A model generated the notes under the pieces. It was not told where the DNA came from and did not search any database. It saw only the letters and a program-made list of their open reading frames with translations. From a virus (Duplodnaviria > Caudoviricetes), in the IMG/VR virus record IMGVR_UViG_3300028591_000130, positions 40,761 to 104,760 of that record: a DNA stretch of 64,000 bases, one strand, 5' to 3'. Below are positions 3,924 to 64,000 of the stretch, in pieces (position 1 is the first letter of the stretch; every line of letters begins with the position of its first letter). The translations under genes were made by a program, and so were the position numbers.

Positions 3924-6092
3924 ATGGCTTCAACGTTAAAATTCACAGGTAACGTTACAGGACAAATTAAGGCAAGGGGATCTTACGTTACAAAAAGTTA
4001 TCCTACAAGTGCAATCCTATACACTACAAGTACAGAGTTGCCGGAAAAACTTGACGAAAATGCACTGATCTTCACAACCGATACTGCTGAACTTTTTGTA
4101 GGTACCAAGACAGGTATTCAAAAGTTAAAACTTGGCAGCGAAGCTGATCTTAATCCTGCAATTTACCTTACTATTGCTAACGCCAAAAACACCTACCAAA
4201 CAAAGGAAGGTATGCAAAAGGTTAAGGACGATATCTACGAAGATATCTACACCTTACAAAATAACGTTTATACCAAGGAAGCTATTAATGACTTTATAGC
4301 TAAAGATTATGACAAAGACGGTGTTTTGGATAACCTTCAAACTTATACAATGCAACGTATTGATGAGTTGCTTGGTGAAAAGGCAGCTTCTTCTGATATT
4401 TACTCCAAAAGAGAAACTAACGAACTCTTGTTGAACAAGGTAAACTATGATGACTTTACACCTGTTCAAAGCGCAGTTAATGCAATGTCACCCGTATTAA
4501 CTCGTCTGTCTTCTGATATCACAACGAAGGCAAACAAGGATGACGTTTACAGACAAACTGAAATTGACAATAAGTTTGTAGCTGTTAACACAAGCATTCT
4601 TGATATCCAAAATAGTGTAACGGCACTTGACGAAGCAGCAGCCAAACAAGCTGACGTCACAGATACCGTAAGAGAGATAAACAACAGGATTGACGCCCTG
4701 GATGACACAAAGACTTCGCTGGCTTACGTTAATGAGCAAGATCTTGCTATTAAAACAACAGTTGGCAGTTTGTCTCGTGATCTTTCTGACTTTAAGACTA
4801 CTGTTTACAACAAAAGTGAAATCGACTCTAAAGTTAGAGAACTTAACAGCGCTGTCCAAGATACCAATACTGCTATTAATAACAGTGTTGCTGAAATCAA
4901 TGAAACAATAGCAACGTTAAGTCACGATATCATAGATAACAGCGCTGCAATCGGCAATAATGTTCGTGATATTACCACTAACGCAAGAGATATTGCAAGC
5001 GCAGTCATAGATATCAACACGATCAAAAGTACCTTACAAACTAAAGCTAACAGCACTGACGTTTATACCAAAATTGAAGTTCAAAATCTTCTCGAAGGTA
5101 AAACTGATCTTACCGCCTTGTATCGTACTATAGAAGAGTATAACGAACAAACAATCAAGGAAATGTTTGAAAGAGAAGATGCCCTTGACTTAACATTATT
5201 CTATACAAAGACTGAAGTTGACAATCTGTTAGCTAACAAAGCAAGCAGTACTAATCTTGAAACTCTTGTTGAAAGAGTCTCAACCATAGATCGTGACGTT
5301 ACTCGTATTCTTGAAACAAAGTTACCGGCTATCACTAATGATATGTCTACTATGGCAGGACAAATTGACAATGCCTTGTCTACAGTTAACGATAATACTA
5401 TAGCTGTAAGGTCAGCCAATCGTAATTCTCTTGAAGCTAAAGTTAACGCTCAAAATGCCGTTGACACAGCAAACAACGCTCTTAATATTGCGAATAGTAC
5501 TATCGAAAAAGGCGATAAGGCTATTGTTGACTCTGCTGCTGCACTCAGTGCTGCTACTGATGCTGCTGCTGCAGTTGAAGGTGCAGTCAGAGCTGCAAAC
5601 AATATCCAAGACTTGATAGCAGGCGTTCAGCTTGAATTCGCAAACCTTAAGAATAATACAGTGAATACTGCTACCTTTACTGCCGAACTTGCAAAGAAAG
5701 CTGATATCGTTGCACTTGAAAATAAGGCAAGCAAAACAGAACTTACTACAGGTTTGTCTCTTAAGGCAGACAAAAGTGCACTTGAAGATCTTGCTGACGT
5801 TGTAGCAATAAAGAGTACGGTAGAAAGTGCACTTGCTACTAAAGCTGACACAACAACAGTTGACTCAAAAGTTAGAGAAATAAACAATAGTATAACAAGT
5901 ATTATAAATAGTGTAGAAGATCTCAATACTAAGCTTGAAGCTGCCATAAATGATACATCTTACGTTGATACTGCACTTCAAGAGAAGGCTAACATAACTG
6001 ATGTTTACACAAAAGCTGAAGTTGACGAGATTATTAATGATACTGTCAGACAGGTAATGAACACGTTAACCCTTAAGTTATTGGGACAGTAA
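3924..6092 (+). CDS. Putative long coiled-coil tail fibre protein
   Basis: Repeated KA(N/D)xxDVYTKxEV(D) motifs; N-terminus similar to 1336..3303. Confidence 0.65.
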   Translation: MASTLKFTGNVTGQIKARGSYVTKSYPTSAILYTTSTELPEKLDENALIFTTDTAELFVGTKTGIQKLKLGSEADLNPAIYLTIANAKNTYQTKEGMQKVKDDIYEDIYTLQNNVYTKEAINDFIAKDYDKDGVLDNLQTYTMQRIDELLGEKAASSDIYSKRETNELLLNKVNYDDFTPVQSAVNAMSPVLTRLSSDITTKANKDDVYRQTEIDNKFVAVNTSILDIQNSVTALDEAAAKQADVTDTVREINNRIDALDDTKTSLAYVNEQDLAIKTTVGSLSRDLSDFKTTVYNKSEIDSKVRELNSAVQDTNTAINNSVAEINETIATLSHDIIDNSAAIGNNVRDITTNARDIASAVIDINTIKSTLQTKANSTDVYTKIEVQNLLEGKTDLTALYRTIEEYNEQTIKEMFEREDALDLTLFYTKTEVDNLLANKASSTNLETLVERVSTIDRDVTRILETKLPAITNDMSTMAGQIDNALSTVNDNTIAVRSANRNSLEAKVNAQNAVDTANNALNIANSTIEKGDKAIVDSAAALSAATDAAAAVEGAVRAANNIQDLIAGVQLEFANLKNNTVNTATFTAELAKKADIVALENKASKTELTTGLSLKADKSALEDLADVVAIKSTVESALATKADTTTVDSKVREINNSITSIINSVEDLNTKLEAAINDTSYVDTALQEKANITDVYTKAEVDEIINDTVRQVMNTLTLKLLGQ

Positions 6093-40722: not shown

Positions 40723-41178
40723 ATGCTGACACAAGATAAAGGACTTGAAGGTTTTTCGTTGCCTATTCTCGGCACTGATTATTACGTTAGGTGCGTTAAG
40801 GCAACAGACATGCCTGACTGGTACTTCAAAGAGAACAAAGGTTACTGTGATCATACTGTTAAAACTATAACCGTAGAAGATTTGGCTACAAGAAGCAATG
40901 ACTATAACGATATTCTTGGTGATCTGGAAGAGATAACGAATCAAACTTTAAGACACGAAATTATTCACGCCTTTTTAAGAGAATCAGGATTGGGTGACGA
41001 AAGTGATATCAGTGAAGTCTTTATTGACTGGCTGGCACTTCAGGCACCCAAAATTTTTAAGACTTTCTGTCAAGCTAAAGCTTTATCTTCGGAACAGATA
41101 CGAGAATGTACTGACGCTTTTAACAGACAAAACGTAAAGGAAAGTGATATCAATGGCAATACAAGGATTACAAACTAA
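40723..41178 (+). CDS. HExxH zinc-metallopeptidase-like phage protein
   Basis: GYCD...TLRHEIIHAFLRESGL...E..DW. Confidence 0.7.
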   Translation: MLTQDKGLEGFSLPILGTDYYVRCVKATDMPDWYFKENKGYCDHTVKTITVEDLATRSNDYNDILGDLEEITNQTLRHEIIHAFLRESGLGDESDISEVFIDWLALQAPKIFKTFCQAKALSSEQIRECTDAFNRQNVKESDINGNTRITN

Positions 41179-44783: not shown

Positions 44784-46463
44784 GTGAAATGGATCATAAA
44801 AGACAGAGAATACTTTAAACCTTACTTACAAATTGTACAAAACGAGTACAAGAAGATAGGCATAGGTAATGTTATGGCAAAGGTACTGTTAAACAGGGGA
44901 TACAAGTACGAAGATATTAAAAGAATTATAACAGACCCTGCTAACTGTCTTGACTACCCGGACGAGATATATGGGTGCAATGAAGTATCTGCTGCCATTA
45001 TTAAAGCTGTTAACGAAGGCAAGAAAGTAATTGTGTTTGCTGACTATGACGTTGACGGTTTAACAGCGGGATACATTATGTGTAACTATCTGAAAACACT
45101 TGGCACTGATGTCTCTGTTTACTATCCTGAGAGACACGAAGGCTACGGTCTCAGCTTATCGTTCTTACAGAAACTTAAAGGCGACGAAGTTATAGTAACG
45201 GTAGACAACGGCATAGGCGCCCTGCCTGCTATCAGGTATTGTAAAGATCATAACATTACCTTGATCATAACGGATCACCACCAACCTAAGGAAGAGATAA
45301 AAGACATTCCTGTCTGTGATCCCTGGTATGATCCTAACGGTAAAGGACACCACTTGTGTGGTGCTGCTGTAGCCTGGAAGGTCTGTATGAATATAGATGA
45401 CATTTTAGGGAAGGAAGAAGCTTGGAAGCTTGTGCCTTATGCTGCCATAGGTACAGTAGCTGACGTTATGCCTATGACGCTGGAGAATATGGTTATTGTA
45501 AGAACAGGCTTACAGATGATCGAACAAGGATTTGTACCCAATATCCAAAAATTCTTTATAGCTGAAGGGATATCACAACCTACAACAGTTGACATTGCCT
45601 GGAAACTTGCGCCTAAGCTTAACGCCGCAGGACGTATGGGCAAGGTTAAACTTGCGTCAGATTTTCTGTTTTATGAAGGTGATACGGCAGGTCTTGAGAG
45701 AAGGATAATAGATATTGACAGTATTAATAGAGACAGGAAGGCGTTATCAAAGCAAGCTGAAAGTATAGCTCTGGCACAAAACTATGACTTTAATGCCTTC
45801 TGCTTATTTGACGCTACTGACTATCCTGCAGGGATATCAGGCTTGATAGCTAACAAACTTGTTGAGGTATTTAACAAACCCGCTATTGTTTACACAAGGA
45901 CTAACAGTACTACTTGGCCTGCAAGTATGAGATCTAACGGGTTTGATATGCTTCCTTATCTTGAAAGACTAAAACAACAAAGTATAATCTATGACTATGG
46001 CGGGCACAAGCAAGCTTGCGGTATATCCTTATTTCCTGATCTTGAAACATTTCAGACAAAGCTCAACGGTTATATCAGGATACCTTTGTCAGAGTTTAAA
46101 CAAGAAGAACAAGTAGTTGAAGTTGACAAAGAGATATCGTTGGCTGACGTTAACAACAAGCTTATGTCTGATATCGCTATGATACCGTCAGATAATAACT
46201 TGTTTCCTGAACCGGTATTTATCGTTAAAGGGTTAACCGTTGTTGATATCGAACATTCAAAGAATAATCCTAACAATATTAAATTGCACCTTGTTGACAG
46301 AGACAAAAACCTTTACAAACTTTGGGCTTGGAACAAGGATAAGACATACAAGGCTATAGGAAGTCCAAAGTATGTCGATATCATAGGTAAGGTTACAAGG
46401 GGCTTTGGTAACGAAGCCGGGAGTGCAGTATTTAACGTGGAGGACATAAGATGCGCGATTTAA
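44784..46463 (+). CDS. recJ: ssDNA-specific exonuclease RecJ
   Basis: DYDVDG, TVDNG, TDHH, GTVADV, PKLNAAGR, GGH motifs. Confidence 0.93.
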   Translation: MKWIIKDREYFKPYLQIVQNEYKKIGIGNVMAKVLLNRGYKYEDIKRIITDPANCLDYPDEIYGCNEVSAAIIKAVNEGKKVIVFADYDVDGLTAGYIMCNYLKTLGTDVSVYYPERHEGYGLSLSFLQKLKGDEVIVTVDNGIGALPAIRYCKDHNITLIITDHHQPKEEIKDIPVCDPWYDPNGKGHHLCGAAVAWKVCMNIDDILGKEEAWKLVPYAAIGTVADVMPMTLENMVIVRTGLQMIEQGFVPNIQKFFIAEGISQPTTVDIAWKLAPKLNAAGRMGKVKLASDFLFYEGDTAGLERRIIDIDSINRDRKALSKQAESIALAQNYDFNAFCLFDATDYPAGISGLIANKLVEVFNKPAIVYTRTNSTTWPASMRSNGFDMLPYLERLKQQSIIYDYGGHKQACGISLFPDLETFQTKLNGYIRIPLSEFKQEEQVVEVDKEISLADVNNKLMSDIAMIPSDNNLFPEPVFIVKGLTVVDIEHSKNNPNNIKLHLVDRDKNLYKLWAWNKDKTYKAIGSPKYVDIIGKVTRGFGNEAGSAVFNVEDIRCAI

Positions 46464-48091: not shown

Positions 48092-51000
48092 ATGACAGGT
48101 TACGTTGGATTGCACCAGCATAGTACATACAGTCTTCTTGACGGTTTTTGTAAGATACCCGATCTTGTCAGAAAGAGTAAAGAACTTGGATGGACTGCTA
48201 CAGCAATAACGGATCATAATCACCTTGGAGGCATTCCTGACTTTCAACAAGAATGTTTCAAGCAAGGAATAAAACCGATCTTAGGAATGGAAGGATATTT
48301 TACGGTGAGCACAAAAATCTTGTCTGCGCCCATCGAAGAAAGACACAAGATTGCAGAACGTGACGCTATTCTGTCAGGTAAGTGGACTGAGGCTGATATC
48401 AAAAGTTTAGACAAGCAAGATCGTAAACAACTTTGGCAAGATTATGGTTATGACACGTCAGGTTTTCATATCTTGTTCTTGGCTAAGAATCAACAAGGGT
48501 GGAACAACCTTGTTAAGATCCAAAGCGAAAGCAGCAAAGCTTGTACCTTTAACGGCAGATATCACTGTGATATGAATATCTTGAGAAAGTATCATGACGG
48601 GGTTATCTGTACTACAGCATGTGTAGCTAACTTTGCTGCTGCAATGATTAACAACAGAAAGACGTCTCTTGCTGCTTGGTACCTTAGTCAAATGCAAAAG
48701 ATCTTTAGTGACGACTTTTACCTTGAAATTCAACCGTTAAATATTAAGAAGCAACAGACAGTCAATCTGTTCTATCATACCTGGGCACAAGATCATAGCG
48801 TTAAGGTTATTGCTACTAATGACTCTCACTGGATAAATCAAAGTGACGCTGCTGATCATGACGTACTCTTGTGCATAGGTACGGGCGCCAAGCAAGCTGA
48901 TATGGCACGTATGCATTACTCGCCTGTGTTTTGGATTAGAAGCGAAGAAGAAATGATATCGGCCTTTGAAGAACAAGCCGATAGTATGGTAGAAAAGTTT
49001 TCTAAGTTTAAAGAACAAGATAGAGAAGATTATCTTAGCTTTTGTAAGCAAGCGTTAACTGCTACCCAAGAAATAGCTGATAAAGTAGATCCTGATATTA
49101 AACTTGGATCAGAGTATCACCTGTTTCCTGCTGTTAAGGTAGAAGAAGGTAAGACTGCAGAATTTGTCTTGTATGAGAAAGCTGCTACCGGACTCTTTGA
49201 ATATCTTTACGACAATCCCGATCTTGACAGAGAAGTCTACAAGACAAGACTTGTAGAAGAACTTGATATTATATGTTCTAAAGGTTTTGCGCCTTACTTC
49301 CTTGCCTTTGAGGAACTGGCTACATGGTGTGATATCAACGACATACCTACAGGTCCCGGCAGAGGATCTGCAGCAGGAAGTTTGACACTCTTGTGTTTAG
49401 GTGTAACCAAGAAGATCGATCCTATCAAAATGAAACTTTGGTTCTCTCGTTTTATGACAAAAGACAGAACAGCTATTCCTGATATCGATTATGACGTATC
49501 TTGGGCACAACGTGACAAAGTTATCAAACACCTCAAGGAAACTTACGGTACAAAGTTTGTCGCACACATAGGCACTTTCACTACTCTTAAGGTTAAGAGT
49601 GCTATTAAGGACGTAGCCCGTGTCCTTGGTCTTGAGTTTACGGAAAGCCTTAAAATATCCAAGGCTATTGACGCTCTTTCAGAAGATCCTAATCTTTCTT
49701 TTAAAACGATAGACAGTTGGGCTGACGGATCTTTAGATGACAGAGAAAGGTATAAACGTTTTCAAGAACTTGAAAGCAGTTATGAAGATATCTTTGAACT
49801 TGCAAGAAAATTTGAAGGTATACCAAGACAAATGGGTGTACACGCAAGCGGTATTCTGGTAATGCCGAAACCTGTCAGTGATCTCTTCCCTGTCAGATAT
49901 CTTGACGGTGTAGCTGTTACTCTTTGGACAGGCACACAGGTAGACGAGATGAAAGCTTGTAAGCTTGACCTGTTAGGATTAAAAACTCTTGACCTGTTAG
50001 ACACAACCGTTAAAAACGTAGGACTCTCAATAAGAGACATTTACGAAACAGTTGATATCAACGATAAAGAGTTATACAAAGCTATCAGAGAAAAGAAAAC
50101 TAACGCTGTCTTCCAGCTTGAAAGTAATCTTATGAAACAGATTATCGACACTATCCAACCTACCTGTTTTGACGACGTGATCGCAATTAACGCACTTGCA
50201 AGACCGGGACCTTTGTCTTGTAATATGCACGTTGACTATGCTGCCGTTAAGAACGGAGAGAAAGAGATACAATATCCGATCAGGGGTTGTGACGATATTC
50301 TTGATATCACTTATGGTGCTATAGTGTATCAGGAACAGGTAATGGCCATTTCTAAAAGAATAGCAGGTTTTGACGACAACCAAGCAGACAATATCTCGAG
50401 GAAGATTATCGGCAAAAAAATAGCCAAGCTTTGGCCTATGCTGGTTCGTTGTCATACCTATGGTAAGAAAAATTGCGAAGGACCTGACGGATGGGAAGAT
50501 AACGACAATCTGCCTTGGTATGACCCCAAGGGCAAGTACGGTGATGAGATAGAAGGTGCTATTAACAGAGGTTACAGTGCTGACGAAGTAATATCATTCT
50601 TTAACAGTATTGAGAACTACGCAAGCTACGCTTTTAACCGTAGTCACGCTGCCTGTTATAGCCTGCTGGGAATCTATACTATGTACGTTAAGCTGCACTA
50701 CCCTGTTTACTTTTGGGCGTCAGTTTTGTCGATAGCAGAAGATGCCAAGAAAGAAAAGTACTTTGTTACGATCAAGGAACAGGATATTCAGTTTGCTGTT
50801 CCTGATATCAACAAGTCTAACAAGGATTTTACAGCTGACTCTAAAGGAAAGAAAATTTTCTTTGGTCTTAATAGCGTTAAAGGGATCGGGGAAAGTACAG
50901 TAGCTGATATCTTATCTGACAGAGAGAAGAACGGATTTTACAAGGGTGTAGAAGATATCAACAGTCGTCTTCCAAAAAAGACGTTGCGCCTTAACGTATT

Positions 51001-51469
51001 TCTTACCCTTGTTCTTGCAGGTGCCTTTGCCTTTGAAGATGAAAATCGTTTTATTCTTTACAACAAGGTCCTTGATATCAGAAAAGATAAGAAGACAAAA
51101 AGAAAGAACGTCGATAAGTGGAACGAAGACGAGTGTAAGAAACTTGAGAAAGATCTGTTGGGTGCAAGGATAACTTACAGTAGCTGGTGGGACAGTATTA
51201 AAAATGGATCTTCCTTTAAAGATATCAAAGTTAACAGTGTAACAGCGATATCAGAACGTACAGACAAAAAAGGGCGTTTAATGTTATTCTGTAACTTAAC
51301 CATAGATGCCTGTAAGATAAAAGCGATTATGTTTGCAAGTGACTACGCTAACCATAACGGACAAGCACTCAAAGACAAAAAAGGACCGTTTGTGATAGCA
51401 GGAAAAAGACAAGATGACACAATCCTGATCAAAAACGTTAAGATCGATATTGAAGAAATCTTAGAGTAA
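48092..51469 (+). CDS. dnaE: DNA polymerase III alpha subunit (DnaE-type)
   Basis: PHP domain HQHS.YS.LDG, TDH, TNDSH; GPGRGSAAGS, PDIDYD, HASG, KLDLLGL, FQLES, YAFNRSHA. Confidence 0.95.
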   Translation: MTGYVGLHQHSTYSLLDGFCKIPDLVRKSKELGWTATAITDHNHLGGIPDFQQECFKQGIKPILGMEGYFTVSTKILSAPIEERHKIAERDAILSGKWTEADIKSLDKQDRKQLWQDYGYDTSGFHILFLAKNQQGWNNLVKIQSESSKACTFNGRYHCDMNILRKYHDGVICTTACVANFAAAMINNRKTSLAAWYLSQMQKIFSDDFYLEIQPLNIKKQQTVNLFYHTWAQDHSVKVIATNDSHWINQSDAADHDVLLCIGTGAKQADMARMHYSPVFWIRSEEEMISAFEEQADSMVEKFSKFKEQDREDYLSFCKQALTATQEIADKVDPDIKLGSEYHLFPAVKVEEGKTAEFVLYEKAATGLFEYLYDNPDLDREVYKTRLVEELDIICSKGFAPYFLAFEELATWCDINDIPTGPGRGSAAGSLTLLCLGVTKKIDPIKMKLWFSRFMTKDRTAIPDIDYDVSWAQRDKVIKHLKETYGTKFVAHIGTFTTLKVKSAIKDVARVLGLEFTESLKISKAIDALSEDPNLSFKTIDSWADGSLDDRERYKRFQELESSYEDIFELARKFEGIPRQMGVHASGILVMPKPVSDLFPVRYLDGVAVTLWTGTQVDEMKACKLDLLGLKTLDLLDTTVKNVGLSIRDIYETVDINDKELYKAIREKKTNAVFQLESNLMKQIIDTIQPTCFDDVIAINALARPGPLSCNMHVDYAAVKNGEKEIQYPIRGCDDILDITYGAIVYQEQVMAISKRIAGFDDNQADNISRKIIGKKIAKLWPMLVRCHTYGKKNCEGPDGWEDNDNLPWYDPKGKYGDEIEGAINRGYSADEVISFFNSIENYASYAFNRSHAACYSLLGIYTMYVKLHYPVYFWASVLSIAEDAKKEKYFVTIKEQDIQFAVPDINKSNKDFTADSKGKKIFFGLNSVKGIGESTVADILSDREKNGFYKGVEDINSRLPKKTLRLNVFLTLVLAGAFAFEDENRFILYNKVLDIRKDKKTKRKNVDKWNEDECKKLEKDLLGARITYSSWWDSIKNGSSFKDIKVNSVTAISERTDKKGRLMLFCNLTIDACKIKAIMFASDYANHNGQALKDKKGPFVIAGKRQDDTILIKNVKIDIEEILE

Positions 51470-56715: not shown

Positions 56716-56745
56716 AAAAAGCTATCAAGAGTAGTCTTGATAGCT
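56716..56745 (-). terminator. Terminator or operator inverted repeat
   Basis: AGCTATCAAGA-4 nt-TCTTGATAGCT, followed by a T run on the minus strand. Confidence 0.65.
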
Positions 56746-56746
56746 A

Positions 56747-56775
56747 ATTTTATCATATTGCTGTATTGTTTACAA
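56747..56775 (-). promoter_or_regulatory. Possible SigA-type promoter
   Basis: TTGTAA-17 nt-TAAAAT with TGn extension. Confidence 0.5.
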
Positions 56776-58013
56776 CTGCCACATAGGTTTTCCTGTTACC
56801 GGATCTGGACCGGTAGGTGCTGCCCAGCAAGAAAACGGATCTATGCCACAGTTCTCTACACTTGTAGTTCTTTCGTTGCCAAGGTTAGAAGGGTTTTGGG
56901 TACCAAACTCAAGGTGAAGATGTATAGATCCGGGGCTGCCTGTATCACCCATAATACCAATATCTTGTCCTTTTGTAACTTCGTCACCTTCGTTAACAAG
57001 CACTCTTCTGCAGTGTAAATATCTGCTAAAGGTACCGTCATAGTGTGCGACATAGATTGCGTTACACCATGACTCTAACCCTGCGTAAATAACTTTGCCG
57101 TCTTTAACAGCACAAAACGAGTAATTTTTGTCAGGACGTTCGTTACAGTCAGCAGTACAAAGATCTACACCTTCATGTTCGTAATATCCCCTACTGTTTC
57201 GCCTTGGTTCTCTAAACGGCGCAGTCATAACTACCATCTTTTCTGCGTCATCATTCATAGCTGCTTCAGTGAACGGGAAGCCCCATTCAGGACCATCGAA
57301 TTTTGTAGTCTTTATGCTGTTTACCATACCGGCAGTAAGGTAACAGATAGCAGGATACAAAGATAACCCGTTAGTGCTGCTTGTACCTTCTTTTTCAATG
57401 CCTTTCTTGATCTTTTCTGCAGCTTCAGTCCAAGTAACATTATCTGCGTCAGGCTTGTTGACTGCAGGTTGTGTGTCGGTAGTACTGCTGCTGCCTCCTG
57501 TAGTTGTAGAGTCACCTTCAAGATAAGCATCAAGAGTACCGTCAATGTACATTTTAACAATATTCTCACTGGTATTCATTGCTGTCCAAACAAGGGCAGG
57601 ATTTTTGGTGCCTAACCTTTGTGCTATCGCACGATATTTAGTTATGATATCAGCGTAATTCTCGTTATTGTTCATTGCAGTACCGGCTGCAATAACTGAC
57701 ATAACGTCTAGGTCATCGCTATTACCAATTAACTTTCTAACTTCGTCACTATGATTAGTGTAATTAGTAATAGCAAGATCAAGTTTTTGTTCAGCAATAG
57801 CTTTGCCATCGTCAATGTAGCTTCTTAACTCTGTTCCACTATAGCTGTCCATTGCTTGTTTATTTTTAATGTTAGTGTTTGCAACAGCCACAGATCCGTT
57901 AGAAGAAGCAGTTATGCCGGAACCACTGCCGCCTGATCCTGAACTGTAATTTGCCGCAATGTCCTGCCAACTTGCAAGACGACCTAATCGTGAGCCGTCG
58001 TCATCGATCGCCT
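56770..58013 (-). CDS. Exon 3 of the split Cys-rich/M23 peptidase gene (M23 domain)
   Basis: HEGVD, YLH, HLHLE M23 motifs; frame is open from the group II 3' splice site at 58013. Confidence 0.85.
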
Positions 58014-60791
58014 ATGTCCATAGGTAAGGGTTTGAAGTTATCTCCCCCTTTTCCCCGGACCCACACCGGACATAAGATTTTCACCTTATCCGGCGTTCCC
58101 CCTATGCTTACTTTCTTTTATAACGATAGTTCTGATTTTTCAAGTTTTCCTTTTCTTGCTAATTCTTCTTGTTGCGTATACTACAGATGGTTCACATATA
58201 CTTCTAAGTTTATTCACTTTGGCTATCATTTTGGAATCAAGATTACATTCCTTTGTTAACCTTTCTATTGTTTCTTCATTAGTACTGTGTATCAGCAAAT
58301 GAATCTTTTCTTCTACACAAACTAAGTTACTGTATTCGTCTGTACCTCCAAGCTTCAACGGGGTTTTATGGTGACAGTGAATCTCTTCAGGGCTGACGAA
58401 TTCTCTACCTGTTATTGCGCATTTGCCGTGTTGATTGACGTAGCAACTGAGTTTGTTGTTTTGATATTCGATGCTTCTATCTCCGCTTCCCATATTAACT
58501 TCTGCTAGCCATTCAAGTTCATTAAGGTCTATTTCCTTATGAATAAGATATCTACCTTCTTCACTGAATGCGCATATATGTCTATTTAGCGGTTTCGGAT
58601 ACTCACACTGAACATAAGCTATCGGATATAGCGGTTCTCCGCTAGACTTTTCAAATCGTAACATTTTACTTTGTCCAAATCTTCTAGCTTCCGACCTTGT
58701 AAGTTCTCTACCCATTTTGTCTAGTCTTCCTTTTCTTTTAACACTTTTCAACTTTATCAACATAGCATTGTTTATTTGATATCCTATTTCTCTACAATCT
58801 ATATTGACCATAGTTGCATATCTGTAATAATTTTGGAACCCTATGACTTTTCGGTTAAACTCAGCTACCCTTTTCCTAGCTTGTCTTGGATCTCTACTGT
58901 GTGATATCAGTTCTAGCATAAATTTCAGCTTTTGCTTAATTCTAGCCTTTGCCTTCTTACAGATCCAAGTTCTTGCTATGTAACTTTTACCTTTTGCTAC
59001 TGCCTTAAAGATGAACCCAAGAAATTCGATCCCCTTTTCTTTTAGATTCACGATTATACTTTTTTCTTCTGATATTTCTAGTTTTAGGTTTCTCTTTAGG
59101 AAGTTTTTACACGCTATTAATATTCTTCGACATTCTTCATTATTCTTTCCGAAGATAATTACGTCGTCGGCATATCTAACGTGATACATTTCTTTAAGAT
59201 TACCTTTACGCATTTTCTTGTAACTTTCACCTTTATGCAGTACTCCCGGTTTTACTTCCCTAGCTTTCCTTATCGCACGCGGGTTATTTATCCATTGCCT
59301 TTCTATCCATTTATCAAATTCGTCTAGTACTATATTAGCTAAGAGTGGTGAGATTATTCCTCCTTGCGGCGTTCCTTTTGTATTCTCAATCAGTTCTCCG
59401 TTTGGAAGTTTAATCTTTGCTTTCAGAATCTGTCTTATGATATAGATTAGCTTTTTATCCCTGATACCGTATGACCAAATTCTCTTAATGAGTCTACTAT
59501 GGTTTACGTTATCAAAGAACTTTGTAATGTCAATCTTTATTCCATAGTACATATGACTTTTGTTTATTCTATAGTTTACGTCTGCAACTGCGTGTTGTGC
59601 ACTATGACAAGTTCTAAACCCGTGACTGTATCTGCTAAATTTTGCTTCACAAATAGGTTCCATTACTTGATATATGCACTGTTGAATTAATCTGTCCCAT
59701 ATACTAGGAATGCCTAGCGGTCTAAGATCTCCATTCTCTTTAGGAATTTCAAATCTTCTTACTGCTTTAGGCTTATAGCCCGCTTTACTTAATGTAAGGT
59801 TTTTAACTTTGTCAATCACTTCCGACATAGTCATTTCCTTTATGTCGTCAATAGTTTCTCCGTCTGTTCCTTCCGTAGAACTTCCTTTGTTACTCTTGAC
59901 ATTTCTGTATGCTAGCCTAATGTTATTGTCTGAGAAGATCAGTCCTGTTAGGTTTTCAAAGTTGTCACCGATGCTGCTTCTGTAATGAAGCATATCGAAT
60001 ACTTCCAGCATACCTTCAATCTCCGCGTTCCTAATGTTAGCCTTAATGTTTTCTCTTCCGTATTCGTTTACCATAGGGCGACACCTCCGTGTTCCTTTTG
60101 AAATTCCTTCGCCTATCTCTAGGTTACTATTATCCCTATGTAGCTAATAATTCTTGTAAGCATAGGCTTGAGTTCATTACTACTTCTCACATTATATGAG
60201 ATATCAACGCTTCGATCTCTACTTTTCAGCAGGGATTAAGAGTGCTTATTTTCTTCGTCACTCAACTTCTTTTTTTCCCGTTCCCTACCTTTCAACGTTC
60301 CTATATACTTATCACTTGTGTCCTTAGGACCCGAATATAAGCCTGCTAACTTGATACTGCCCGCTTCTTTCGATTCGCAGTATAGGGAATTTCATAGGCG
60401 ACATTATTACTTTACCCCATTAGCCCTATTTACATAGTAAATGCCCATTCGACAATTTCTAACTTTTAGACCCTTTAATTTCTCCGGTTCGTCAACCTTT
60501 TACGGTATACTATCCATAGACACATTATACGACTTCCGGCCTATCAGTAACAAACGTACCGCTACGTTCTTTTCCACTCTCATACTTTGTTAGTATTGTA
60601 GGGTTACCTTCAGCCGACTTTATCCCGCTTCACACAATTTAGCTTTCGCTTATAACTGCGTGGGGAAGTCTCAAAGTTAGCCTTTCAGGACGTTACTCCT
60701 TCATTCGACTAATCAGTATACAAGTTGTACCTAATTTCTTAGGCCGCGCAATCCCCAAGTATTTCTACTCTTTCTGCGCAACATTTCGCAC
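58014..60791 (-). mobile_element. Group II intron (2778 nt, probably bacterial class B)
   Basis: 5' GTGCG at 60791; domain V ACGCCGGATAAGGTGAAAATCTTATGTCCGGTGT (58096-58063); domain VI ending ACCTATGGACAT at 58014. Excision restores the frame (NWR-Q-AIDDDG). Confidence 0.93.
58140..60074 (-). CDS. ltrA: Group II intron reverse transcriptase/maturase with HNH endonuclease
   Basis: RPLGIP..WDR, GTPQGGIISPLLANI, RYADD, FLGF, domain X, CAITG...HCHH...N...H. Confidence 0.95.
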   Translation of the reverse strand: MVNEYGRENIKANIRNAEIEGMLEVFDMLHYRSSIGDNFENLTGLIFSDNNIRLAYRNVKSNKGSSTEGTDGETIDDIKEMTMSEVIDKVKNLTLSKAGYKPKAVRRFEIPKENGDLRPLGIPSIWDRLIQQCIYQVMEPICEAKFSRYSHGFRTCHSAQHAVADVNYRINKSHMYYGIKIDITKFFDNVNHSRLIKRIWSYGIRDKKLIYIIRQILKAKIKLPNGELIENTKGTPQGGIISPLLANIVLDEFDKWIERQWINNPRAIRKAREVKPGVLHKGESYKKMRKGNLKEMYHVRYADDVIIFGKNNEECRRILIACKNFLKRNLKLEISEEKSIIVNLKEKGIEFLGFIFKAVAKGKSYIARTWICKKAKARIKQKLKFMLELISHSRDPRQARKRVAEFNRKVIGFQNYYRYATMVNIDCREIGYQINNAMLIKLKSVKRKGRLDKMGRELTRSEARRFGQSKMLRFEKSSGEPLYPIAYVQCEYPKPLNRHICAFSEEGRYLIHKEIDLNELEWLAEVNMGSGDRSIEYQNNKLSCYVNQHGKCAITGREFVSPEEIHCHHKTPLKLGGTDEYSNLVCVEEKIHLLIHSTNEETIERLTKECNLDSKMIAKVNKLRSICEPSVVYATRRISKKRKT

Positions 60792-61170
60792 GCCTCCAGT
60801 TAATATGCGGCTTTTGTTCTTCAAGTGGTACTAACGACCAATTCATAACAATACCAGGGCCCCATATATCGTTAAGACCTGCAGCGTCATTACCTTGATC
60901 TTTTAGTACCTTAGTCAAATCTATCTTACCACTTTTAGGTTGATTAACGTATTCTTCTACTCTGGACATTCTAACGTATTCTTCGTTATTCGTGTATGAC
61001 ATTTGTAGATCATCTAACACTTGCGCTACGTTGACACCGATATCATTCATACATTCGTATACCTGACCAAATATAGGCTCAAAACGTGTACAACAAAGGC
61101 ACTGATCAATTTGTACCAGAGCAGCATCGCCAACGCGATCATCTTTCATACAACGGATACAACGATATTT
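60792..61170 (-). CDS. Exon 2 of the split gene
   Basis: KYRCIRCMKDDR...KPHINWR between the group I terminal G (61171) and the group II GTGCG. Confidence 0.8.
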
Positions 61171-61446
61171 CAGTTTTGTTATCGTAAGGCTTTTTATCCT
61201 TACTTCTACATCATTACAATGTAGCTCGGCGTACCTTTTTACGTAATATATAACTTTTTACAAGTTACTTGTTACAACGTAACGCGGACTCTTGGATCTA
61301 TTATTTCAAGATCTACGCTCTGCCCCTGACTATCCAGTTGTGGATATCACTGTGTCACCACAGTTTAGTTTACTGTTAAACGCCTTCGGTTCGGGTTGCC
61401 TGACACTGTAAAAGTATCGTTACGGCTTTCCTGCTTAATTCCGCGT

Positions 61447-62472
61447 TCATACTCCAAAGTCTTCTGTAACATTTGACTTTGGACGAGTTATGATTTGGCT
61501 GAATATGTCATGTTTTCTGTCAAGATAGATAGTTGCTTCATCATATAAAAACCTGTAAATATCTTGAAGTCTATATACTCCACTGTACGCTATTGCTTGA
61601 GTATTAATGTTCCAACTTTTTTGATGTATCCTTTTAGTTGGTTTTTGGTTATGACAGTGAGATAATAAGATACTTTCATAAACATCTAAGAAAGCAGGAG
61701 TTCCTAATACCTGAAATACGCTATTATAAATACGACTTTTTACATTAACGTATCCGTCACCGTCAAAATAACCGCGCATAAAATGGTTCCTATACTGTTT
61801 AGGAAGCTGTTCTTCAGATGGAAAAGTTAAAACTAAAGACTTCTTTTGTACACATCCTAAACGTATTAAGTCATTAGTGACTTTTATTGAACAAACATTT
61901 AAGCTATAAGCATTGACTCTTTTTTCAAAACGTAATGGAATATGTCCTTCAATATTATGTAAAAACTTTTCAAGATGCAGTTTATCAGAAGCTTTCAAAG
62001 TAATTACCAAGACACCACGCTCTGCAACATATCCATCAGCATAAATAAACCCTAACCAATACGCTTGATCTTCTGAAGATATTTTAGAGAAATAGTTTTC
62101 ATTAAATAAATATTTTCTGTTTTTCTGAATACCATTATCATCTCTAGCGCCAGTATTTATGCCTTTAGCAAATAATGCTTGATATACATAATGTGTGCTA
62201 ATACCAAGCTCATCAGCGACCTTACGTATTGAATAATATTGATTATAAGAGTCTGCTACTGCATCTGCAACTTTTAGCACCTTTGGACTAGGTGACATTA
62301 ATTGATATTTGTGTAAGATATTTAAAATGCCATGCTTGCTTAAGCCGAAAGTTTGAACAAGTTCAGCAACTTTACTGCCTTGCCGAAAAGCGTTACAGAT
62401 TTTTTGATCACGTTTTTGAATATCATTATCTTGACTATTTGTATCTATAACCAGTGAAATATTTTCAGACAT
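61447..62472 (-). CDS. LAGLIDADG homing endonuclease with N-terminal HTHs
   Basis: YWLGFIYADGYV and HFMRGYFDGDGYV; ATG 62472 after GGGAGG. Confidence 0.9.
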   Translation of the reverse strand: MSENISLVIDTNSQDNDIQKRDQKICNAFRQGSKVAELVQTFGLSKHGILNILHKYQLMSPSPKVLKVADAVADSYNQYYSIRKVADELGISTHYVYQALFAKGINTGARDDNGIQKNRKYLFNENYFSKISSEDQAYWLGFIYADGYVAERGVLVITLKASDKLHLEKFLHNIEGHIPLRFEKRVNAYSLNVCSIKVTNDLIRLGCVQKKSLVLTFPSEEQLPKQYRNHFMRGYFDGDGYVNVKSRIYNSVFQVLGTPAFLDVYESILLSHCHNQKPTKRIHQKSWNINTQAIAYSGVYRLQDIYRFLYDEATIYLDRKHDIFSQIITRPKSNVTEDFGV

Positions 62473-62496
62473 ATTGTCTTCCTCCCTCTTCATCTG

Positions 62497-62526
62497 ATTA
62501 TAGCTTACAATACATTACATTGTCAA
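62497..62526 (-). promoter_or_regulatory. Intron-internal SigA-type promoter for the endonuclease
   Basis: TTGACA-18 nt-TATAAT. Confidence 0.8.
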
Positions 62527-62535
62527 CCCTTCATT

Positions 62536-63471
62536 CTCAAATGTCGTTTGCCCACCGTAGTAGTGACAATTTATCATTACTCGTGCACCCATACGAAAGA
62601 GATATCTTGAGAACGTTGAAATATTATTTTCGATACGAACCAAGCGTTTTTCGATAGCGTCACATTGGCTGACAACTGCCTTAGCAGCTTGTAAACCGTG
62701 ATTGTGAGTGTCTAACGTGTAGATCTTTACTCTTGGTAAATGTGTTTCAAATTCTTCTATTTTTTGATCTACGGGAAATGGATCTCTGTTCTGCGGCGGC
62801 TTGCCTGAGTTTGGTTCTTTGAAGTCATTCTTAAAGGTTTTAAAGTTAAGAAGGTGTTGTCTTGCACGGATAGTAGTAGCGTTACCTAAGATTGACGAAA
62901 GTTCTGCACCGCCTACGGATCCTTGAAGTTGTGATATCACCTCAGCATTATCCGTACCGTACAGAGTTTCGTTGATTCTCTTCATAGCTGCCGCAAGATT
63001 ATTAGCTTTAGCTATAGCTTCAGCGTTAGCTTGTTTTGTCTCTTCAGCTATCCTTTTATCGTAAGCTTCCTTAGCTTTTTGTAAGGCTTCGTCACTTGCG
63101 TAATAGACACCGTCAACTACTCTTTCGGGGTGTTGTGCAGCAAGAGCAGCGTTACGTACCTTCTCTTCTTCAGTCATAGTATTCTTGGCTATAGCTGTTG
63201 TAACTTCGTTAGTAGGTGTCATTGCCTTATATTGTTCAAGAATTTCTTCTCCAGCTTTGATCTGTTTTTCTATTTCTGTTTGTGTAGATTGTGTCCTTGT
63301 GATATCAGCGTTAATACTTTCTTCTGTATCATTCATTGTCCAGTTAGTAGGATCCTTAAGTTTCTCTCTTAGTGCGCCAATGCTGCTTGTAGCGTCAGAA
63401 GACATTTTTCTTAACCTTAACAGTTCTTCTTCAATTTCTGTAATCTTAGCTGTAAGCTCAGTTTGGGTCAT
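62536..63471 (-). CDS. Exon 1 of the split gene (coiled-coil N-terminus)
   Basis: ORF ends ...INCHYYGGQTTFE just before the intron promoter. Confidence 0.78.
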
Positions 63472-63492: not shown

Positions 63493-64000
63493 TTATGGCT
63501 TAGGAGTTGCTCCAGATTGTCCCGATACAGTAGTTGTATTGTAAGCTTCCTTATATCTCAATACGTAAGTCCAAGAACGCCCTTCAATACGATAATAATC
63601 TATTTCTTCACCTTGATCGCCTGTTTCAGGACTTCCTTGTCCACTATTAACACCTGACGCTTCTACTGTTCTGTTACTCTCTATAGCTATGGCTGCGTGA
63701 TGCCCTTCTCTTATTAGGATATCGCCACGTAAGATATTTCTGCTAACGTCAGCGTAATTATAACGCTCCCATCCACCAAGAGATTCAAGTGCGTTCCAGA
63801 TACTGTCAGCGTCACAAGGATAGCCGCCGTTGGCTTCAATAACCTTAAAGCCCCCTGCGTCAAGTGCGTAAGAGACAAAAGAAGAGCAGTCATAATCAGG
63901 ACCTGTTCTGTTATCTTGAGAATAGCCATGACTTTGATCATCTGCTATACTTTGTGCCCATGATATCATTGCTTCTATACTGGCGATAACAGAGTAAGAA
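63493..64000 (-). CDS. NlpC/P60-type peptidoglycan hydrolase domain protein (5'-truncated)
   Basis: GYSQ..R.GPDYDCSSFV, RGDILI..GHHAA; frame is open to the window end. Confidence 0.85.
   Translation of the reverse strand, partial: SYSVIASIEAMISWAQSIADDQSHGYSQDNRTGPDYDCSSFVSYALDAGGFKVIEANGGYPCDADSIWNALESLGGWERYNYADVSRNILRGDILIREGHHAAIAIESNRTVEASGVNSGQGSPETGDQGEEIDYYRIEGRSWTYVLRYKEAYNTTTVSGQSGATPKP

Follow-up and report, generated by a model that had tools for sequence, protein, structure and literature searches.

The window analysed here is a stretch of 64,000 nucleotides (64 kb, positions 40,761 to 104,760) that forms the last part of the 104.8-kb virus record IMGVR_UViG_3300028591_000130 of IMG/VR (Caudoviricetes), the completeness of which is estimated at 45% by CheckV; reads holding window sequence come from sheep and goat gut metagenomes. 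At its right end, on the minus strand, five open reading frames (ORFs) follow one another in the order of an ORF of 318 amino acids (63471-62515), a LAGLIDADG homing endonuclease of 348 amino acids, an ORF of 136 amino acids, a reverse transcriptase (RT) of 644 amino acids and an M23 peptidase of 373 amino acids. We consider it highly probable that this region is a single gene for an 852-amino-acid hydrolase of an uncultured sheep-gut phage, split by two independent mobile self-splicing introns, one of group I and one of group II. Unless stated otherwise, the window features described below are all on the minus strand.

In the direction of transcription the gene starts with exon 1 (62536..63471; 936 nucleotides (nt), 312 codons, ending in ACA TTT GAG), followed by the group I intron (intron 1; 61171..62535, 1365 nt), a member of an IA-like phage family with an endonuclease cassette in the P1 loop. 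Exon 2 (60792..61170; 379 nt) encodes a Cys-rich module and is followed by the group II intron (intron 2; 58014..60791, 2778 nt), with GUGCG at its 5' end and GGACAU at its 3' end, and by exon 3 (56770..58013; 1244 nt including the stop codon), which encodes a Gly/Ser linker and an M23 peptidase. Together the exons (936 + 379 + 1244 nt) make 853 codons, that is 852 amino acids and a stop. An earlier note on this stretch, made by a model from the sequence, had proposed that the frames 63471-62536, 61170-60792 and 58013-56770 join in frame into one product, that only 379 nt separate the two introns and that the group II joint creates a Gln codon, C|AG; these coordinates hold, exon 2 (61170-60792) ending with AACTGGAGGC directly before GTGCG and exon 3 beginning with AGGCG. 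The joined protein has the Cys-rich middle, the Gly/Ser linker and the M23 peptidase that had been described for it, and is clearly a predicted peptidoglycan hydrolase, built of an N-terminal helical part, the Cys-rich module, the linker and the M23 metallopeptidase. The match of exon 3 to Pfam Peptidase_M23 (PF01551) reaches 62.2 bits (cut-off 28.7), and both zinc motifs, HxxxD (HEGVD) and HxH (HLH), are present in its translation.

Using exon 2 as a query for longer proteins, we collected 37 homologues. More than ten homologues run uninterrupted across both joints (YYGGQTTFEKYKCIRC, HINWRQSINDDGS), and the junction peptides predicted in the earlier note occur in such uninterrupted proteins: P0008 contains YYGGQTTFEKYKCIRC, the peptide foreseen for the first joint, and reads INCVYYGGQTTFEKYKCIRCM, and about 30 proteins read HINWRQ(A/S)I(D/N)DDGS. 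In the full-length homologues P0004-P0010 (1011-1044 amino acids) the three exon translations are colinear with exactly one residue per joint, Glu at the first and Gln at the second. The IMG/VR relative L001 (1131 amino acids) is continuous through YYGGQDHRAKYKCIRC and NTNWRQDINHPDG; residues 204-308 of exon 1 align to it without interruption, and exon 2 is 46% identical to it over 126 amino acids and up to 89-97% identical to the proteins P0001 and P0012. When 15 homologues are aligned, their invariant columns gather precisely at the two insertion sites, so that the introns lie in the two most conserved motifs of the protein, which fits the usual habit of homing elements. The proposal of one gene holding a group I and a group II intron at these junctions is in this way borne out by the spacing of the homologues, to which the intron folds and the DNA alleles described below are added.

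Homologues pair the conserved Cys-rich module with amidase_2, SLT, M15 or 'phage tail lysozyme' domains, the last of which (PF18013), carried by some of them, is the sole hint at virion association. Among the phages of INPHARED, neither a DNA search nor tblastn with exons 1 and 2 gave a relative, and exon 3 found generic M23 domains as its only matches; the search of IMG/VR with exon 1 gave no match and that of the protein atlas with the conserved module no usable match.

Intron 2 is a complete group II intron, the splicing of which is predicted from its sequence. The Rfam model RF02004 (group-II-D1D4-5) matches at 60729-60525 over its full length with 144.9 bits (gathering score 34.5) and RF00029, the model of domains 5 and 6 (D5 and D6), at 58098-58024 with 46.5 bits (threshold 40). 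The 5' end at 60791, GUGCG, agrees with the GUGYG start. Within 58014..58098, D5 measures 34 nt and D6 shows a bulge at the branch point, A58021, which lies 8 nt from the 3' splice site; this region folds with a z-score of -3.7, none of 200 shuffled sequences being equally stable. In domain 1, the exon-binding sites EBS2 (AGUUAG, 60464-60459) and EBS1 (GCCUAU, 60399-60394), which were assigned by script and by eye, lie 65 nt apart; the last 12 nt of exon 2 are made up of the intron-binding sites IBS2 (UUAACU) and IBS1 (GGAGGC), which form 6 base pairs in EBS2/IBS2 and 5 out of 6 in EBS1/IBS1. The predicted exon joint is AACTGGAGGC|AGGCGATCG. Domain 4 encodes the intron's own RT-maturase-HNH protein (58140..60074, 644 amino acids), which scores 327 bits with the NCBIfam equivalog TIGR04416 (group II RT/maturase; cut-off 300), matches Pfam RVT_1 (2.7e-38) and carries an HNH tail, and matches group II RTs of the PDB with E 1e-46. 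It is 42-57% identical to proteins of 40 bacterial genomes, many of them metagenome-assembled genomes from the ruminant gut, that belong to the Lachnospiraceae, Oscillospiraceae and Selenomonadaceae; no close bacterial copy (>60%) was found. These bacterial kin would fit a Firmicute host of the phage, without naming one.

The strongest evidence for the group II intron is the existence of base-exact DNA alleles without it. In run X2, a sheep-gut sample from a different study, contig 5 (4.4 kb, 23x) joins 58013 directly to 60796, with a synonymous Arg change (AGG -> CGC) as the only difference in between, and contig 6 (9x) contains the full group II intron together with exon sequence on either side; the two alleles coexist in this one sample. 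Exactly the segment 58014-60791 is also absent from L001, from the 344-kb phage contig L006 of an independent ENA assembly, from L007, the exons of which are 93-97% identical to those of the window, and from the diverged homologue L059 on a 133-kb IMG/VR contig. We also considered target-site immunity, in which a changed IBS1 would shield intron-free alleles, and rejected it as a general rule because the empty site of L007 keeps an identical IBS1.

Intron 1, which more than ten homologues lack, is according to its modelled structure a group I ribozyme and belongs to an IA-like family that is common in Firmicute phages; its splicing, too, is predicted. Termini similar to its last 70 nt are found in the sequences that interrupt many genes of Firmicute phages, among them a tape-measure gene (Staphylococcus phage 6ec), a helicase gene (Bacillus phage KLEB27-3), terL (Lactobacillus phage JCL1032; its record annotates the coding sequence (CDS) as a join) and the DNA polymerase gene with the I-BasI-bearing intron (Bacillus phage Eyuki, Bastillevirinae). 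From six members of this family we derived an order of elements, namely guide sequence, P2, P3, P4, P5, P6, P7, a hairpin after P7, P3', P8, P7', P9, P9.1 and the ending GAUAACA-N5/6-G. In the core, 93.5% of cells are paired and 25 of the 41 pairs show compensatory changes, which none of 500 shuffles matches and to which slid controls (25-38%) do not come near, values that lean towards the structure as it was drawn from the same six sequences that score it (MAFFT alignment, pseudoknot brackets). Helices P2, P3, P4, P5, P6, P7, P7.1, P8 and P9.1 covary in the six members, P3 and P7 crossing each other in a pseudoknot.

A covariance model (R1), restricted to the 3' domain and trained on six sequences including the JCL1032 terL intron, scores intron 1 at 156 bits as its single match in the 104.8-kb genome, and it finds nine further phage introns outside the training set with 43-105 bits, including the Eyuki I-BasI intron. 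Over 16 sequences of the 3' domain, 97.7% of cells are paired and 21 of 27 pairs are compensatory. Neither a second group I intron (model R1) nor a second group II intron (Rfam) was found in the 104.8-kb record. In the window, P2 is formed by 61482-61475 and 61461-61454 and the 5' strand of P3 by 61447-61440 in the derived structure, and the 3' domain placed by model R1 extends over 61171..61328. It comprises the 5' strand of P7 (61320-61314, with A61319 bulged) and its 3' strand (within 61235-61227), the P7.1 hairpin (61313-61295), P3' (61288-61281) followed by P8, then P9 (61224-61206), P9.1 (61203-61184) and the terminal G at 61171. Pair 14:207 of P7 is G-C in 14 out of 15 sequences, with one nucleotide bulged before it; in the window it corresponds to G61318 and C61231, preceded by the bulged A61319, and by comparison with P7 of Tetrahymena we take the pair G61318-C61231 to be the guanosine-binding site. 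All members of the family share the GAUAACA-N5/6-G ending, and the last column of the alignment is an invariant G in six out of six, here G61171, which places the 3' splice site where the homologues have their joint.

The cassette in the 5' part of intron 1 begins with a sigma-70-type promoter, TTGACA-N18-TATAAT (62497..62526), which is the sole 12/12 match in 7.1 kb and sits between the 5' splice site and the guide sequence, its -10 box ending at 62497. A ribosome-binding site, GAGGGAGG (62488-62481), follows the promoter and precedes the ATG at 62472. The endonuclease ORF is listed from the ATG at 62493 (61447..62493, 348 amino acids), and the real start is probably the ATG at 62472, behind the ribosome-binding site, which would give a protein of 341 amino acids. 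Its 3' end extends over the guide sequence and P2 to the beginning of P3. Pfam LAGLIDADG_3 is matched with 30 bits (cut-off 22.5) over the second motif only, phrog_4645 ('endonuclease') with 2e-60 and PDB 2dch weakly (E 0.021), and both motifs are visible in the translation as LGFIYADGY and MRGYFDGDGY. Relatives of this enzyme were found in 25 IMG/VR contigs. Phage group I introns mostly carry GIY-YIG, HNH, PD-(D/E)xK or EDxHD enzymes (PMC3984707), a list outside which LAGLIDADG falls, so that the enzyme is a less usual one for a phage intron.

Three observations speak against one gene restored by two splicing introns. Rfam, including RF00028, gives no group I match even at E<=10, whether for the 64 kb, for 7.5 kb or for 341 nt; it misses the related introns of KLEB27-3 and 6ec too, so that the RF00028 model does not reach this family, and Rfam and GISSD models have been described as liable to fail on phage group I introns, most of which are IA-like (PMC11878797). 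One mismatch is present in EBS1/IBS1. Finally, the cleavage-site pair inferred for intron 1, G62536:C61487, is G-C and the canonical U is absent. The U·G wobble pair at this position is regarded as completely conserved in group I introns (PMC11835236).

The sole 5' joint that keeps the spacing of all homologues lies after GAG (UUUGAG|, G62536) at an E|K joint, the predicted joint being ACATTTGAG|AAATATCG, and the internal guide sequence CUCG (61484..61487), which abuts P2, pairs there with UGAG of the exon (62539-62536). The group I assignment and the junction given in the earlier note both stand, but it had missed that a G, not the conserved U, precedes the 5' splice site. In introns i1 and i2 of L006, in L007 and in KLEB27-3, a guide GCCG(U) abuts P2 and pairs with exon GGU| via U·G; in JCL1032, which is without P2, GCCGU lies just upstream of P3 and again makes U·G with exon GGU|; and L059 has the guide GUCG, the exon UGAU| and a U·G pair. 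The 5' splice site is preceded by a U in KLEB27-3, JCL1032, L006 i1 and i2, L007 and L059, in contrast with the G of intron 1. The window and, at the same position, the independent assembly L006 have CUCG and exon UGAG| in the same register with a G-C pair, both partners at the cleavage site being changed relative to L059.

Other placements were tried and rejected. A canonical site after U62539 (joint ACATTT|AAATATCG) loses the conserved Glu, and one after U62533 gains one residue; each offers at most one exon-side base pair with the guide region. A candidate guide UCAGAUG in the promoter region puts the wobble pair at a position that breaks the frame, and an 8-base-pair match in the loop of P2, ACAUUUGA/UCAAAUGU, offers no wobble pair and is not conserved in L006. 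A metagenome scan for variant guide sequences returned four chance matches and no intron. Watson-Crick pairs at the cleavage site impair the first step in the Tetrahymena ribozyme, and two readings remain, namely that intron 1 splices at an unusual site or that it splices weakly. Tentatively, and with more doubt than confidence, we suggest that it may splice after the G, via G62536:C61487, in an exceptional intron-hot-spot gene that has, across related rumen phages, five group I sites (three of them within 18 nt) and one group II site, with an 18-nt micro-exon in one relative. Use of the G-C site would contradict a rule that current databases apply as a filter, a point of real specialist interest.

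A rival idea is that splicing has been lost in one intron or in both, above all in the group I intron with its G-C pair, and that the gene amounts to fragments of which the products are made separately or not at all. The missing U·G wobble of intron 1 lends some weight to it. Every fragment could, moreover, be translated from a start to a stop within it (exon 1 ORF, 318 amino acids; ATG 61149, 136 amino acids; GTG 57891, 373 amino acids), and gene callers list the pieces in relatives as separate proteins, P0001 and P0012. We nevertheless judge this unlikely, as the exons stay in frame and conserved, the ribozyme core is intact and about 99% conserved between two phages with exons that differ by 11-23%, and the group II intron has every required element; the internal starts, moreover, are without obvious ribosome-binding sites by eye, and the M23 part alone would lose the conserved module that is fused in all full-length homologues.

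For the preferred reading of one gene with two mobile introns, the relatives of the locus provide a record of movement. L006, which is without the group II intron, carries a group I intron at the site of intron 1; this copy (L006:5166-5979) is 97-98.7% identical to intron 1, and 98.7% identical in the ribozyme core, whereas the flanking exons are only 77-89% identical, and this near-identity against diverged exons points to recent mobility. The endonuclease gene of the L006 copy has a 540-nt internal deletion, only a 126-amino-acid helix-turn-helix fragment being called, and looks like the decay stage of the homing-endonuclease life cycle. Two further ORF-less group I introns of the same family interrupt exon 1 of L006 (L006:4258-4548 and 4798-5147, equivalent to window positions ~62795 and 62554), the second of them 18 nt upstream of the intron 1 site, which leaves an 18-nt micro-exon, GGACAGACGACTTTTGAG, between two introns. 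L007 is without the group II intron and has an ORF-less group I intron (L007:81-450) in exon 2, between the positions equivalent to 61061 and 61060 of the window, where it splits the Val codon of GQV|YE. Alleles of the L007 type are also present in runs X2 and X7, and many database proteins start with MNDIGVN just past this site, which suggests that the L007-type intron is common. In L059 (L059:1298-2770), which is likewise without a group II intron, a group I intron with a LAGLIDADG gene 42% identical to that of the window sits 6 nt, or two codons, upstream of the window's group I site. In related phages, group I introns thus occupy four sites of this gene besides that of intron 1; of these five sites, three fall within 18 nt, in the motif of the protein that is conserved best.

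The earlier note had also raised the possibility of co-homing of the two introns. This we reject, since their distribution is independent: the group I intron alone occurs in L006, other group I introns without group II occur in L007 and L059, and run X2 contains alleles both with and without the group II intron. The spread of the introns appears independent and recent and alleles with and without them coexist, and the locus lends itself, as a natural system, to the study of how introns are gained and lost in rumen phages.

The same relatives bear on the view that intron 1 is no ribozyme and that a free-standing endonuclease cassette, or another insertion, merely splits the gene, a view to which the absence of an Rfam group I match and the cassette's own promoter might lead. 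We hold it to be very improbable: about 320 nt of non-coding RNA 3' of the ORF covary strongly with the topology of group I; in L006 and L007, copies of this RNA without an ORF are inserted at other positions of the gene; and the kin of this RNA are the JCL1032 terL intron, with its annotated join, and the Eyuki I-BasI intervening sequence. Less probable still is an error of assembly by which mobile elements from other genomes were joined into the contig. In its favour, the window is a metagenome assembly and the intron-free allele of X2 has 23x against 9x for the intron-bearing one; against it, contig 6 of run X2, which stems from another study, runs through the group II intron from exon to exon, the independent assembly L006 has the same group I intron at the same site, and both boundaries are base-exact at sites that restore the conserved frame.

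If the gene is one gene with two mobile introns, the following sequence of events can be proposed. Through its cassette of promoter, ribosome-binding site and LAGLIDADG gene, intron 1 would spread by double-strand-break repair homing; the intron-less group I site in the gene reads GGTGGNCARACNACNTTYGARAARTAY. The RT-maturase-HNH protein would help intron 2 to splice and would spread it by retrohoming into UUAACUGGAGGC|A. After transcription each intron would excise itself and the reading frame would be restored, intron 1 by a guanosine-initiated reaction together with its terminal G and intron 2 by attack of the bulged A at 58021, giving a lariat. That both introns splice in the host we infer from the anatomy of the DNA; metatranscriptome contigs from sheep gut (runs X6 and X19) cover parts of both introns and exon 3, and none of them crosses a joint.

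A phage gene with introns of both classes has been published before, the virion RNA polymerase beta' gene of the Bacillus jumbo phages AR9 and PBS1, which has one of each (Merk, Jones & Eddy, NAR 2025, PMC12350094). Group II introns were, moreover, reported in 9,229 IMG/VR contigs (PMC12350094), so that the earlier note overstated the novelty of the arrangement. The likeness extends to the kinds of evidence (Rfam models of D1-D4 and D5/D6, intron-less homologues, EBS/IBS pairing), both cases being protein genes of a phage. The AR9/PBS1 introns, however, carry related EDxHD/Vsr-like homing endonucleases, whereas here the group II intron encodes an RT-maturase-HNH protein and the group I intron a LAGLIDADG enzyme, so that two mobility mechanisms would differ within the one gene; and the host gene is a cell-wall hydrolase instead of a transcription enzyme. 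The window thus offers a clean, base-exact case of both intron classes in one phage gene, each with its own classical mobility protein, in a host gene outside the set of DNA and RNA metabolism. Bacterial RT-X-En group II introns of gut and rumen Firmicutes have the same domain order as intron 2, but the copy in the window sits in a structural or lytic gene of a phage. Several self-splicing introns with short exons in one phage gene are known from Twort orf142 and the SIOphi DNA polymerase (PMC11878797), there of group I only.

As for intron 1, the introns of JCL1032 terL, Eyuki I-BasI and the tape-measure genes of 6ec and Clostridium phage phiCP13O have the same 3' domain (P7, P7.1, P8, P9, P9.1, GAUAACA-N5/6-G) and score 43-134 bits with model R1; the LL-H intron is presumably related to that of JCL1032 terL. 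Firmicute phage introns share with intron 1 the guide abutting P2 and an endonuclease cassette in the 5' part, that of 6ec being a similar one, but those compared have HNH enzymes or none, in contrast with the LAGLIDADG enzyme of intron 1. In 6ec (L004 1600-2570) and phiCP13O (L013) the tape-measure gene is annotated as two CDSs around an HNH gene, and in both phages the group I 3' domain matched by model R1 lies immediately ahead of the second CDS; these look like unannotated introns, and the P4-P6 region of the 6ec copy seems strongly reduced. A practical lesson is that gene callers split such genes and that Rfam overlooks the group I family of intron 1. The features that merit further study are the non-canonical splice site of intron 1 and the density of intron polymorphism.

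Around the gene, an intrinsic terminator-like hairpin (56720..56745) with an 11-base-pair stem and a T run stands directly after the stop codon. The neighbouring gene directly upstream, on the minus strand at 63493-64000, encodes the C-terminal part of a large protein with Amidase_5, NlpC-P60 and 'endolysin-like' domains, which measures 848 amino acids in L006, so that two large cell-wall hydrolase genes adjoin. Most large proteins of the window are without a PHROG family, and its plus-strand ORFs (window 1-54200) reach up to 1312 amino acids; the recognisable genes among them, a family-B-type DNA polymerase (48092-51469) and a RecJ-like exonuclease (44784-46463), are both uninterrupted.

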